A stretch of 52,602 nt of DNA from a virus (IMGVR_UViG_3300001683_000042:1-52602); one strand, 5' to 3'; shown: positions 8,158 through 27,788, counted from the stretch's first letter. Numbers and translations: made by a program. The notes: generated from the sequence alone by a model not told the origin.

Positions 8158-11100
8158 TTAGGGTGTATCTGGTGAAGCTGTTCCTGCTACCCGATTATTA
8201 TCTAATGTTTCCATAATAGCTGAAACTAATTGTTGGGTCAGAAAATTATCTTCAAAATATGTTTTAGTAATCAAACTTGTGTTAGTTGTTACCGCCGCAT
8301 TAGATTGCGGTTCTCCTGCGAAAACAACTTTACCGGTATCTGAATTTAACTGTAAATCCGTACCTGACGAAGCTACTGTTGAAATTGTTGTGCCTGATAT
8401 AAATAATGATCCAACTGTTGCAGTATTTACCCCAATGTTGCTCTCACTACCACCTAATTGGTCAGATACATATGTTTTAATTGCTTTTTCTGTTACTAAT
8501 GCAGTATCTGAGTTACCGCTTAATGTTCCATCTATTGAAAATTCATTAACTGTTGCTCCTGCACTTAATCCTAATTCTTGTACACCAACCAATGTAAAAT
8601 CTTCTACATTCATTGTTGCTTTTTTAGATGATTGTTGTACAGAAAATAACCCACCTACATCAAAATTACCATCTTGGTCTGTTGCTGTATAAAATACTCT
8701 TCCACCAGCTCCCTCTAGAACTTCTTTTGTTGGGTCGGCCGCTTGTGTTGGTACCCCGGGATAATTAGAAGTAACAAAATCTCCTGTTCCTATACTTAAA
8801 AAGTCATGTCCTGTTAATCTACAACTAGAATATTCTTCTCTAAATTGAATACTTGTTCCATGAATAGGTGAACTTGCTGTTGTCATTTGCGGAGATATAT
8901 GTATTAATGCTGTACCATTGGCACCTCCTGAATTAGTATATCCTATCACATTAGTCACAGTATAAAATATTGGATTAGTTCCTATTTTTATATTTGATCC
9001 GTCTTTAGGTTCAATATGTAAATTTTTCACATACATATAACTACCAGTTTGTGATACTTGTGCATATCCATCGCCTGTTATACTTGCTATAGTTGTTCCT
9101 GGAGTAAGTAACCCTTGTGTCATACCAGCCGGATAACCACCACCACCTGATGTTCGTGACCAAACTGGAATACCATCAGCGATATTAAGTGTAGCATTAT
9201 ATGCAGAAAGTGTAGTAGCATCTGCAGCCGGATCAACTATAGCCAACGTTGGTAAATCAGTTGTATCATATCCTTGGCCTGAATTTACAATAAGAATTTC
9301 TTCTACCTCATTATCTGTCGAAACTTGGCAATGTAAATAAGCCGCAGTTGTCGGAGCCGCTCCGCCTGTTAAAGTTACAGTTGGAACAACTTCATATTGA
9401 GAAGTAAGGTCAGGTATTAGGGTTGGATCTCCTGTCATAGAAGTCCATAGACCATTTAATGTTGCTATTTTTGTAGTAAAATCATAAGATCTAATAGTAC
9501 CATATTGACCTGCGGCTGTTCCACTTAGAATATTAACTGTCATTCCTATATAATCATTTGCTGGTATTGTATTAGCCGCTGTTAATTGAACAGTAGCAGA
9601 TGTTGTAAATGTTAAAGTAGAACTTCCAGTTATTGTTGCGGCCGCTGATATAGTAAAAGTAGCCGAATCAGGAATTGTAACAATAGTTGCACCAGTTGGT
9701 ATGCCAGTTCCACTTACTTCCATTCCAACTACTAGTGAAGATGTATTGCTCACCGGAGTTATTGTGGTAGTACTTGCAAGAGAGCAGAGGATTGTAAATC
9801 CTGCGGCTGGATTTGTTCCTGATTGTGCATTACCAATATATCTATTAAGATCTATTATATTATTTGATGCAGTTATTCTTGTTATACCATTATTACTGTA
9901 CGATCTTGCAAATGTAGCCGCTCCACCAACCGCTGAGGTTCCTGCATCAGGATCGCCTGGAGCAGAAAATGTTACATCTGCGGTTGTATATTCTTCACCA
10001 GCATACTGAAATTCCATTCGTATAACTTTACCTGTAGCCACATCAACTACAACTCTATATGGTAATGCTTCGCCTGTTCGATTATCTATATTACCAATTT
10101 TTTGTGCTAAGTTTGCTTCTGTTTCAAAATTACCTTCAGAAGCTGATCCATATTCTCCATATGAATTACCTCCACCAGTAGAATGTATAATTCCACCATT
10201 AGTAGTTAAATAACCTACGTGATTATAATGTGTAAATACCGATACTGCCTCAATTCTTCCTTTATTTGTTGCAAATAATCCAAAACCATCTGAGTTTATT
10301 TGAGTAAAGTCGTTTGTGCAAAAACTTTGATACTTACCGTATGGTGCATCGTACCCATCACAATATATTCCTCCGCCACCATCATTGATTGAAACTGCAT
10401 TTTGTATAAATGGAGATTTTAAGTTAATTGCACCATTTGGATCTAATCTAAAACACACACCTTTAACTGTAGGTTGAACAGGGGGCGATTGACCTAGAAC
10501 GTCACTTACATTACCTGTTAGACCTCTAAATGTAAAGCCATTAACAGTTATTGCATCGTTGCAATAAAACATTGCAACTTCATTATTAGGACGACCTGCA
10601 CCTAACATAGATATCCCAACTCCATTACCACCATCATCTTCCATATTAGGTTCTATAAATGTTGTACGTTTTTCCTTACCATGAAGGCCAACACCTGCTG
10701 GAATTACCATTGGTAAAAATTCTTTAAATACACCCGGAGCACACATAACTTGATCACCTGATCTTGATCTTTGCAGACAATACCTTATTGATTTAAATGC
10801 CGCACTAGGATTCTTACCCCAAGTAATAATACCAGTTACTTGTCCATATACATCAACCTTTACACCATTCAATACTAACTGCCAGCCTTCATTTATTTCG
10901 CCAGTTGTATCATTTATTGGAGTAACTGTTGCTCTTTCTTTTATGGCCATAAATATTTGATACATTGTTTCATCACCACCATAATTAGAAGTTGTTGTAA
11001 CATCTGTATTACCATATAATCTATCTTTACCATAAAAAACACTAACATTATTTGGATCTACTGCTGACACTTGATTAATAGTTTCCGAAGGAGCAAGTAA

Positions 11101-25496: not shown

Positions 25497-25673
25497 ATGA
25501 AAGAGGATGTAAGGGCCTTTCAGAAACATATAATTGAATTAGTAGTATATTCAGAAGTTATTTCATATAATGACGCTTGGAATTTAACTCAAACCGAACG
25601 AGAATTATTTTTTGAGATTATTAAAGAGAAAATGGATGCAAAAGCAGGAAAGAAGAAAACTGATATGCTTTAA
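25497..25673 (+). CDS. Small gp51-like hub assembly protein, or the frameshift extension of the upstream gene (not in the ORF track)
   Basis: 58 aa MKEDVRAFQKHIIELVVYSEVISYNDAWNLTQTERELFFEIIKEKMDAKAGKKKTDML; SY..AW.L...ER pattern; frame open from 25440. Confidence 0.7.
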   Translation: MKEDVRAFQKHIIELVVYSEVISYNDAWNLTQTERELFFEIIKEKMDAKAGKKKTDML

Positions 25674-26191
25674 AAACCTAGAGCTTCTAATTGTTTAATA
25701 CTATTACTTGCTGAAGTATGATGTATTCCTGTTCCTCCGGCAGAATTCCATTCCTTAATATTTTGTTCATGATCATCAATTAATATATTAGGTCGGCCAT
25801 CATGTGATTTAGCAAAATGTTTTTTATCTGGTCGCTTAACCGCATATACACGATCTTTACTGATACCTAAGTTTTTTTCGCACCACATTGCTTTTTGAAT
25901 TCCTGGAGGAGGATCCCATATTAACCGAACAGCAGGAATAGCGGTTAATATATATGGTTGGAAGGTTGAAATAAATCCCCAAAGTTGGCTCATGTCAGGC
26001 ATAGGAGGTAACTCTGCCCAAAACATTTTATCTTCTGCTAATTGATCCCACAATTCGTGGCTACCTTTAACGTATCCATAACGTTTTGCAAAGTCGTAAC
26101 CTAATATTTTAGTTGCACCTTTAATTAAATCTACTAAAACTCCATCCATGTCACAATATATTTGAGGATAGTCAACATCAGTTAATTTCAT
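25670..26191 (-). CDS. 5'(3')-deoxyribonucleotidase-like HAD phosphatase
   Basis: IYCDMDGVLVD HAD motif I, ILTA, K..W, ILIDD...NIKEW..AGG.GI.H. Confidence 0.88.
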   Translation of the reverse strand: MKLTDVDYPQIYCDMDGVLVDLIKGATKILGYDFAKRYGYVKGSHELWDQLAEDKMFWAELPPMPDMSQLWGFISTFQPYILTAIPAVRLIWDPPPGIQKAMWCEKNLGISKDRVYAVKRPDKKHFAKSHDGRPNILIDDHEQNIKEWNSAGGTGIHHTSASNSIKQLEALGF

Positions 26192-26205
26192 TTACCTTCC
26201 TTTAA

Positions 26206-26600
26206 TGATGAGCTTACGCTCATCACGATATTTCATTACTTCGTAATTCATATCGAATTTCTATTATTACTATTTAACTATTTCCTGAGAGTCAAGTCAC
26301 ACTTAGCCTGTTTACGGCTAAGTTAACTATTTCCTTCGGACATAGCACTTTCTAATAGAATAACCATTTGAAAACGAAAATTTCGTTTTCAAGTTAATAG
26401 GTTAAGGCGGTTGGGCTGTACCTTTTTACATTCTGCTTATCCAACGCAGGTTTATATAAAGCAATTAGATCTACCTTATATACCTTGCAGGTTCCAAATT
26501 GTCAGGAGAGCCTGCTCGTTTTTTACAGTTTTTGCCAACGGAGATCCGAACGAGCGTACTCGTTCTCAACCGGTCTTACGACAATTGAGGCTGTGGTACC
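26206..26600 (-). ncRNA. Candidate large structured non-coding RNA (about 400 nt), unclassified
   Basis: At least eight hairpins; UACG and GUAA tetraloops all read on the minus strand; a long-range helix; the largest non-coding gap in the window. Confidence 0.6.
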
Positions 26601-27106
26601 CCTTCAATTGAGAGGTCTTTAATTGAGCCATTGTTTTGTTTTATAAATTCATTGTAGCCTGTGAAAATCCAGCCTTTGTAATGTACATATTGGTGTATAT
26701 AAAATGAGGAATTAAGTAAGTGTTTTTGGAAGCCTATGTATTTGCCTTTGCGGTTAAATTTTAGTATTAGTAAGTTTAAGTCTTTTTCTTCTGCCACATC
26801 TAGTAGTTGTTCTATCCATTCGTCTAATAGCCTAATGTCGTCTTTAAATAAAAATTGGTGAAAAGGAAAGTCGGCATACGACTTACATTCAACATTAAAA
26901 TATTTCCAATCGTCGGGTGGTATTATGTCTCCTCTGAAGGATTGTACCTGACCTTCGGATAAATATTCTTTCCGTGCAACGTTAGAGCCGCCAACATAAG
27001 CACCCGACGAAGGAGTTCTTACAAAGCTCTCATTGTATAAATCTGATAGTTCTTTTGCTACTTCTCTTTCAAATGAACTGCCTTTAGTTTTACTTTTACT
27101 TGGCAT
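26576..27106 (-). CDS. Holliday junction resolvase-like PD-(D/E)XK nuclease (Hjc type)
   Basis: SKTKGSSFEREVA, RTPSSGA, GDII and VECK motifs. Confidence 0.82.
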   Translation of the reverse strand: MPSKSKTKGSSFEREVAKELSDLYNESFVRTPSSGAYVGGSNVARKEYLSEGQVQSFRGDIIPPDDWKYFNVECKSYADFPFHQFLFKDDIRLLDEWIEQLLDVAEEKDLNLLILKFNRKGKYIGFQKHLLNSSFYIHQYVHYKGWIFTGYNEFIKQNNGSIKDLSIEGVPQPQLS

Positions 27107-27788
27107 TAAGTATTTTTAATAATTTCCAAGGTGTAAAACATACAGTTCCTAAACTGAAATAATCTGCACCTTTACTTTTATAATAGTGTACAATATCTAT
27201 ATGATTAATTCCTCCGCCTGCGATAATCTTCACTGAGGGAAAGTGTGTCTTTATGTAATCGATGTGTTTGATCGTATAACTTATCAATTCTCTTCCGCTC
27301 AATCCTCCGCCAGTAATAGGCAGGGTGTTGGAACAGTGGATCTGACCAAACCCAATGTCTAATAATCGTTTGATTTCGTCCTCTGTAGATAGGGGCGATA
27401 TTTTGGCTATACACCATTGTCTTTTATTATCCCAAAACGCATTGTAAAACTTAGTAACTGTGTTTGGACAACTTAGATTGAATTCTAAGTTTATATAGTC
27501 TGGTATTACTCTTGCAAAGTCTTCCCAATCAATTGGTAGCATTGCGGCAATGCTTATAATTTCTTTACCGTTGTTTTTGTATTTATTAAGTCCGTGTTTT
27601 ATCCCCGGATTACGGAGTCCTAATTCGTTTTTCCAACCTTTCTTAGAAAAATCATATCTAAGAGTTTTAAATAGTTGTTTAATTAGTCCTCGTCTATGCA
27701 ACATTGTGTATGTACCTTTAACACTAATTGCGTTTTTATGTTTAATATAATTGCCAAATGGTGCCGCTATAAAAAATTTATTTTGCAT
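27096..27788 (-). CDS. pyrD: Short class-1 dihydroorotate dehydrogenase-like protein
   Basis: NELGLRNPGI, EFNLSCPN with the catalytic Cys, AKISP, SNT, GGLSG, IIAGGGI and GADYFSLGT. Confidence 0.82.
   Translation of the reverse strand: MQNKFFIAAPFGNYIKHKNAISVKGTYTMLHRRGLIKQLFKTLRYDFSKKGWKNELGLRNPGIKHGLNKYKNNGKEIISIAAMLPIDWEDFARVIPDYINLEFNLSCPNTVTKFYNAFWDNKRQWCIAKISPLSTEDEIKRLLDIGFGQIHCSNTLPITGGGLSGRELISYTIKHIDYIKTHFPSVKIIAGGGINHIDIVHYYKSKGADYFSLGTVCFTPWKLLKILNAK

Follow-up and report, generated by a model that had tools for sequence, protein, structure and literature searches.

The one large gap in the window (the whole stretch of viral DNA analysed, 52,602 nt) probably holds the gene for a structured non-coding RNA, one of a large family that had not been classified before and that comes from uncultured marine T4-like/jumbo myoviruses; the reading as a whole, that of a trans-acting RNA gene, is given a probability of about 0.7. 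Across the family the element is conserved, its helices covary, it is read from one strand, it is independent of any particular neighbouring gene, and in two relatives it has promoters of its own. The original prediction of an unclassified, large structured phage RNA on the minus strand has held up on conservation, compensatory changes, a pseudoknot, the asymmetry of G-U over A-C pairs, the lack of an Rfam match at this locus and the occurrence of the element in metatranscriptome contigs. Few large, highly structured RNAs are known, and new classes have tended to reveal new biochemistry. The covariation support is as strong as for accepted families, and the RNA belongs to an ocean phage group without a cultured representative that carries it.

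The window is a compact fragment of 52.6 kb, and the phage record is 14% complete according to CheckV. In a greedy map of its ORFs, the gap at 26192-26575 (384 nt) is indeed the sole large one, as had been noticed, all others being of 95 nt or less. The predicted overlap with the 3' end of a nuclease gene is also present, the stop codon of that gene sitting in the GUAA loop of the first hairpin (H1). Every hairpin that had been listed was found on the minus strand, each where it had been placed. When 26192-26600 is folded on this strand, the minimum free energy is -121.4 kcal/mol, compared with -87.0 +/- 4.8 for 100 dinucleotide shuffles (z = -7.2), and 0 shuffles equal it; the plus strand of the same segment gives z = -5.5. 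The hairpins in their places and the z of -7.2 against shuffles together show that the observation is real and beyond chance.

The RNA spans about 26590 to 26273 on the minus strand (roughly 320-330 nt), or continues to 26206 if the last two hairpins (E2 and E3) belong to it. It is built of three parts: a clade-variable 5' domain (H1, H2), a strongly conserved core (~150 nt) made up of five helices and an H-type pseudoknot, and a 3' domain. The features are given here in the direction of the RNA, with the two flanking genes:

26576-27106, minus strand: nuclease gene of the PDDEXK_15 family (ORF of 176 aa; Pfam PF24608, E = 3.6e-26), 5' of the RNA; its stop codon (26576-26578) is within the H1 loop.
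26565-26589, minus strand: H1, CUCAAUUGUC-GUAA-GAC-CG-GUUGAG, first hairpin of the variable 5' domain; other clades have, by eye, a similar bulged-hairpin architecture with a different sequence.
26548-26565, minus strand: H2, GAACGAG-UACG-CUCGUUC; relatives show the compensatory forms GGACGGG/CCCGUUC and AACAGG/CCUGUU.
26354-26524, minus strand: conserved core (H3-H7 and pseudoknot), a full-length match to model R1 (136 bits, E about 1e-31).
26487-26515, minus strand: H3, GCAGG...CCUGC, with a UCC/GGA helix inside it and a loop that is conserved; both sides vary in 4/5 pairs, and pairing holds in 97% of cells.
26449-26484, minus strand: H4, a long irregular hairpin (the AU-rich stem of the original prediction); the closing pairs 43/86 and 45/84 covary.
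26434-26448, minus strand: H5, UGC/GCA, the loop of which holds the 5' strand of the pseudoknot, GUUGG (26441-26445).
26404-26424, minus strand: H6, AAGGU/GCCUU, enclosing the 3' strand of the pseudoknot, CCAAC (26410-26414); both sides vary in 5/5 pairs, and pairing holds in 100% of cells.
26363-26402, minus strand: H7, ACC...GGU, which covaries; its loop houses an optional insert (26368-26392).
26266-26367, minus strand: 3' domain, matching model R2 with 91.9 bits.
26324-26335, minus strand: X1, copy one of a repeat, AGGAAAUAGUUA, partly the 3' strand of a local hairpin P8 (26327-26345).
26301-26323, minus strand: P9, ACUUAGCC-GUAAACA-GGCUAAGU, continuing into a conserved GUGUGAC.
26275-26286, minus strand: X2, identical copy two of the repeat, AGGAAAUAGUUA; P9 lies between X1 and X2.
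26226-26255, minus strand: E2, CGAUAU-GA-AUUAC-GAA-GUAAU-GAA-AUAUCG, a hairpin with a symmetric GA/GAA internal loop, possibly separate from the RNA transcript.
26206-26225, minus strand: E3, UGAUGAGC-GUAA-GCUCAUCA, just 5' of the ribosome-binding site of the next gene and kept in close relatives.
25670-26191, minus strand: gene for a 173-aa protein with a DMDGVL motif and no Pfam match, downstream of the RNA; same-strand only in the window's own clade.

Through the nuclease protein, 38 related IMG/VR loci were reached, and in the nearer ones the non-coding stretch behind the nuclease shows 66-90% identity, about equal to that of the neighbouring coding sequence. Further loci were found with a 15-mer from the most conserved part of the element. 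A profile search with nhmmer detects the element in 63 of 111 IMG/VR loci (34 distinct sequences), while R1, a covariance model of the core with 149 positions, combined with a degenerate pattern scan (at least 120 rows), matches at full length in at least 78 loci (78 of the 100 further loci scanned, with 13 more fetched loci left out). The 100 matches of the larger alignment reduce to 92 distinct rows, and the family comprises at least 100 distinct sequences in marine viral metagenomes, where it is abundant. Indels of 1, 2 and 29 nt occur in the core and there is no conserved reading frame, showing the element to be non-coding. The 25-nt near-palindrome at 26368-26392 is an optional insert in the H7 loop, present in the window and in four relatives (L009, L015, L094, L106), and missing from L001, L002, L008 and L010 as well as from three metatranscriptome contigs (contigs X3, X5 and X1, the last not to be confused with the repeat). 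It is also the only terminator-like site in the gap, and an intrinsic terminator, which would be a conserved GC-rich hairpin with a U run at the 3' end, was rejected since this site lies inside H7 and is absent from the same four loci.

The conservation and covariation in related phages on which the original prediction depended are both found. Among 26 distinct sequences, 95.5% of cells pair, compared with 84.2% for column shuffles and 32-48% when the partners are slid by 1-3 columns, and 19 of the 28 pairs change on both sides, a number equalled by 0 of 500 shuffles. With 92 distinct sequences, changes on both sides are seen in 25/28 pairs, the covariation score reaches 0.611 vs 0.213 (0/500), and 91.0% of cells pair (69.3% shuffled, slid controls 33-49%); this alignment was fitted to the nested helices, which inflates their pairing, while the pseudoknot lies outside the model and so is not inflated. 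The second GUUGG, proposed earlier as one strand of a possible pseudoknot, pairs with CCAAC in H6, and across the family this pairing is preserved in the compensatory forms GUUGU/ACAAC, GUUAU/AUAAC, GUUAA/UUAAC, GUUUU/AAAAC, GUCAC/GUGAC and GUUGA/UCAAC. For the first GUUGG (in 26532-26541), the long-range partner suggested earlier gains no support from covariation, and this GUUGG does not track it. H4 folds as a hairpin in 34/34 sequences of the first set, despite being unrelated in sequence between clades. In P9, 92% of cells pair vs 18-49% when slid; its variation consists mostly of A-U/G-U exchanges in the main clades, and distant clades have wholly different stems (CUUGCCC/GGGCAAG, UUCACCGU/ACGGUGAA, UUUGCCG/CGGCAAA). 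RNAalifold on long MAFFT alignments recovered only the well-aligned helices, and clade structure dominated a naive covariation scan of all pairs. Conserved structure with compensatory changes in diverged homologues, the hallmark of a structured RNA family, is thus present. The strand follows from the wobble pairs: G-U/U-G cells number 69 vs 3 for A-C/C-A, an excess which indicates an RNA read from the minus strand, and pairing is 95.5% on this strand and 86.4% on the other.

The window matches no known RNA family. At gathering scores, Rfam 15 (4227 models) gives 0 matches over the whole window, and at E up to 10 the regions 25900-26900 and 26480-26720 yield only chance-level hits (mir-2833, Rota_CRE, ctRNA, 6A, ToxI), far below their cut-offs. 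There are 0 tRNA or tmRNA genes in the window according to ARAGORN, no tmRNA or tRNA hit with Rfam, and no match to the known ribozyme models of Rfam. A group I or group II intron was also considered and rejected, there being no Rfam intron match, and the flanking genes being separate complete ORFs, each with its own start and stop. Four of 25 scanned relatives do match an Rfam family, RF01718 (Polynucleobacter-1, 141 nt), with 77-90 bits (cut-off 37 bits):

L243:10251-10395, strand of the core: RF01718 match, 8-9 nt 5' of the R1 core.
L263:928-1067, strand of the core: RF01718 match, likewise 8-9 nt 5' of the core.
L312:10442-10583, strand of the core: RF01718 match, likewise 8-9 nt 5' of the core.
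L330:248-386, strand of the core: RF01718 match, likewise 8-9 nt 5' of the core.

Since the match lies directly before the core, Polynucleobacter-1 is the 5' domain of a larger RNA in this clade. RF01718 does not match the window, even at E up to 10, nor 20 other relatives (12 scanned at E up to 1 or 10, 8 at the gathering score only), among which are L001, L016, L044, L046, L072, L237, L244, L245, L249, L252, L256, L258, L259, L268 (cut upstream), L275, L282, L285, L317 and L331. In the window and these other clades the 5' domain is either different or too diverged to match RF01718; by eye, H1 of the window resembles the bulged second hairpin of Polynucleobacter-1. Core, pseudoknot and 3' domain lie outside RF01718 and every other Rfam 15 family, and RF01718 may be a truncated view of an RNA of roughly 400 nt. 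The window's RNA family gives context to this orphan Rfam motif. The only trace of RF01718 in the literature searched is one row of a table in Weinberg et al. 2010 (PMC2864571), where Polynucleobacter-1 is entered as a likely RNA, possibly cis-regulatory, of Burkholderiales from fresh water/estuary. The main text of a 2023 catalogue of viral structured RNAs (PMC10690425) makes no mention of GIY-YIG, SbcC, baseplate or jumbo, and its supplementary tables may list the motif anonymously. The core, pseudoknot, 3' domain and twin repeats have no description in the searched literature, supplementary tables lying outside the search. A scan of 154 (3 + 151) Burkholderiales-related genomes with RF01718 gave no match, the control genomes also being without one.

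In being several hundred nucleotides long, pseudoknotted, rich in helices, phage-borne and orphan, the RNA is reminiscent of GOLLD, ROOL, raiA and OLE. These are large orphan structured RNAs, often phage-borne, that form homo-oligomeric cages. The window RNA differs from them in that their Rfam models give no match to it, and in that no self- or mutually complementary loops that would suggest such cages were found in RNAs of its type. We know of no counterpart of the twin co-varying repeats in GOLLD, ROOL, raiA or OLE. Large orphan structured RNAs are the subject of a cryo-EM preprint (10.1101/2024.12.08.627333).

The twin repeats flank P9 in the 3' domain. In the window, AGGAAAUAGUUA occurs in exactly two copies within the 52.6 kb, X1 and X2. 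The word differs from clade to clade, the copies being alike within each RNA (UGGUAAAG, GGCAAGUU, GGGGAAUA, GGUCAAGU, AGAUAAUG, GGAUAAUG, ACGAAAU, AACAGAA), and a shared word of at least 7 nt flanks P9 in 68 of 84 distinct sequences, vs 7.4 expected from shuffles. The spacing between X1 and X2 varies from 49 to 59 nt. R2, the model of the 3' domain, finds the domain directly 3' of the core in 59/100 loci only, and for the most distant clade the assignment of repeats and P9 comes from a custom script and inspection by eye. The duplication is larger than X itself: a GUGUGRC-like word followed by 8-12 variable bases and X occurs twice, before and after the 5' strand of P9 (in the window at 26291-26302 and about 26340-26350, and in relatives also).

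A search for an internal partner of X1 and X2, by duplex energies and longest perfect complements, found the native X no better than a swapped X in any region (in the median, 0.48 of the swapped X equalled or surpassed it); an X complement in the H7 region, spotted by eye in a few clades, was rejected, as it does not generalise. Outside the RNA, the window has no extra copy or complement of X (4 matches with at most 2 mismatches vs 10 expected), and three related records of 56-86 kb show no enrichment (6-10 per strand vs 6-17 for the control pattern). It is unusual for two direct repeats to change in concert without an internal partner, and swapping the repeat offers an experimental handle on whatever target is recognised. 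Repeated motifs in RNA are known from other systems. Sponges of the CsrB/RsmZ type present repeated motifs to dimeric CsrA, and the boxB sites of nutL and nutR in lambdoid phages are the same within a phage and different between phages, because the partner protein co-evolves. The RNA is like both in having two or more identical short motifs in one RNA or one genome; its conserved pseudoknotted core has no equivalent in either. A CsrB-like sponge, for which a repeated GGA in the loop would be needed family-wide, was rejected, with GGA found in X only in some clades (AGGAAAUAG, GGAUAAUG) and not in UGGUAAAG, GGUCAAGU or ACGAAAU. Co-varying direct repeats are also expected of attenuator or riboswitch platforms with mutually exclusive helices, if one strand pairs alternatively with either. 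Here, by contrast, a shared complementary strand was not found, and most loci are without a gene under the control of the RNA.

In the 78 further loci, the RNA usually follows gp47, gp46 and a small nuclease gene, in this order, and is itself followed by a convergent baseplate-hub gene. Upstream, gp46 is present in 60/78 loci; downstream, the baseplate-hub gene lies on the opposite strand in 49/78 loci, a share that becomes 44/51 when only loci whose downstream sequence reaches 1.6 kb or more are counted. The upstream nuclease is a SegE-like GIY-YIG protein in 58 of these loci and PDDEXK_15 in 9; another 6 are cut upstream, and 5/78 have neither nuclease, their neighbours being a redoxin, a phosphorylase, an Mtd_N protein and small unknowns. 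One of the loci with non-nuclease neighbours has three tRNA genes near the RNA (L252:5475-5648 and 9679-9753). The RNA is absent from the fetched flanks of 15/38 PDDEXK_15 loci, and one locus (L081) combines a g3-type RNA (X = AUGGUAAA) with a PDDEXK gene, the closest relatives of that RNA having GIY-YIG. Two unrelated nuclease families, loci with neither, PDDEXK_15 loci without the RNA and this mixed locus together show that the RNA is not bound to one nuclease. That PDDEXK_15 and GIY-YIG alternate in one position behind gp46/gp47 suggests that a recombination nuclease has been replaced non-orthologously. In the window, a gene for 230 aa (27096-27788, minus strand) lies between gp46 and the nuclease gene and has a partial match to dihydroorotate dehydrogenases (PF01180, E = 1.3e-8), an auxiliary gene that is unusual in this place.

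Judged by gp46, Pseudomonas phage PA5oct (about 52% aa identity) is the closest cultured phage; it has a RusA-like resolvase near gp46, and the nearest GIY-YIG homologue is that of Methylophilales phage Melnitz (78% aa). A search of both whole genomes with R1 gave best E-values of 0.10 and 0.99, that is, no such RNA in either; the PA5oct study reports four ncRNAs, at other genome positions (PMC7318152). BLAST of 50,697 GenBank phage records with the gap and with a g3-type relative produced no match, and in a 15-mer scan of 185,579 species genomes, nhmmer recognised no family member among the 120 stretches listed.

Evidence on transcription comes from promoters and from RNA libraries. A 12/12 sigma-70 promoter is found in L244 (2790-2818, minus strand) after a terminator-like hairpin, and an 11/12 sigma-70 promoter in L285 (7542-7569, plus strand), each on the strand of the RNA and ~112 nt 5' of the core, which makes the RNA a separate transcription unit in these two relatives. 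For the window itself, the interval from the nuclease gene to the RNA yielded no promoter-like site; this and the overlap of H1 with the stop codon make it likely that the RNA is co-transcribed with the nuclease gene. Other upstream motifs were seen by eye: a GGCTAATATA-like word recurs 25-60 nt before the first hairpin in L072, L050, L282, L331 and L275, and L239 and L237 have short tandem repeats (CACACUUAGG-like) before the RNA; both may be phage-specific promoters or operators. Metatranscriptome contigs from three studies (contigs X2, X3 and X5) contain the element with 85-99% identity, one of 151 nt covering 26409-26558, one of 272 nt covering 26304-26603, and one of 869 nt covering 26283-27178 and so joining the nuclease gene and the RNA. 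None of the four runs aligned to the window covers 26172-26252. For the discrete transcript that the original prediction asked to look for, such contigs are supporting evidence: they give neither strand, ends nor level, may stem from DNA carry-over and cannot prove transcription.

The main rival to a trans-acting RNA gene is a cis-acting element in the 3'-UTR of the gp47-gp46-nuclease operon, serving as a stabiliser, a processing platform or an insulator at the junction with the convergent baseplate genes. The RNA stands at the 3' end of the operon in 67/78 loci, H1 overlaps the nuclease stop codon, the 869-nt contig links gene and RNA, the window is without a promoter-like site before the RNA, and two hairpins, E2 and E3, come after it. 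However, a pseudoknotted core of ~150 nt with many invariant unpaired bases far exceeds the needs of a stabiliser, the element occurs behind unrelated genes in 5 loci, and it has its own consensus promoter after a terminator-like hairpin in L244 (a promoter also in L285); the twin co-varying repeats would be left unexplained, and we consider this reading unlikely. The original prediction had offered a role as partner of the adjacent PD-(D/E)XK nuclease, and in this form the RNA would be a cofactor or guide with X1 and X2 as guide segments. A GIY-YIG or PDDEXK_15 gene does lie within 1.5 kb upstream in 67/78 loci, and X1/X2 vary as specificity elements would. The same RNA nevertheless adjoins unrelated families, with GIY-YIG in 58/78 loci and neither nuclease in 5, is absent from the fetched flanks of 15/38 PDDEXK_15 loci, and in L081 is found with a PDDEXK gene although its closest RNA relatives have GIY-YIG. 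Together with an alternation that resembles the replacement of one recombination nuclease by a non-orthologous one, this makes a dedicated nuclease guide quite improbable.

An element acting as DNA was the other alternative raised at the outset, either a replication or packaging origin with hairpins in single-stranded DNA or a set of direct repeats that bind a protein. It would suit an inverted repeat flanked by direct repeats and adjoining recombination genes, folding of the plus strand too exceeds chance (z = -5.5), and G-T wobbles in single-stranded DNA would yield the same asymmetry as G-U pairs in RNA. That asymmetry of 69 to 3, the UNCG and GNRA loops and covarying pseudoknot of RNA type, a spacing of X1 and X2 that is not fixed (49 to 59 nt) and the presence of the element in RNA-library contigs all weigh against a DNA element, which has very little probability. 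A riboswitch or leader controlling the downstream HAD-like gene is close to refuted by synteny: that gene is on the same strand in the window's clade, where E3 abuts its ribosome-binding site, but the downstream gene differs between clades, being a convergent baseplate-hub gene in 49/78 loci, and the ~90 nt nearest to it are the least conserved part of the element. With so many downstream genes convergent, the RNA is not a leader.

As a trans-acting RNA gene, the element would function as a folded scaffold, with the core possibly forming a catalytic centre. The twin X elements may be lineage-specific recognition sites, and their partner would then offer two equal sites, as would a co-evolving dimeric RNA-binding protein or a nucleic acid in which the complement occurs twice. 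The lack of an internal complement is what points to an external partner for X1 and X2, and the concerted change of the two copies would fit either one co-evolving factor that reads several sites or pairing with duplicated complements. Because H1 overlaps the nuclease stop codon, the RNA of the window probably arises as the 3' portion of the gp47-gp46-nuclease transcript or by processing of that transcript. A bolder version, rather unlikely and put forward tentatively, is a programmable phage RNA, in which the pseudoknotted scaffold shows two identical, fast-evolving elements of 7-12 nt to a two-site, lineage-specific target (host or phage nucleic acid, or a dimeric protein), with Polynucleobacter-1 being only the 5' third in one clade; changing X would then retarget the RNA.

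Behind the 3' domain, the architecture of E2 is found in 60 of 87 distinct downstream sequences, vs 71/1740 shuffles, and lies 35-137 nt behind P9 in relatives. E2 may belong to the RNA, or it may serve for processing or for the binding of a protein. Its plan is a variable outer stem, an internal loop resembling tandem sheared G-A pairs, a short inner stem and a GNRA-like loop.
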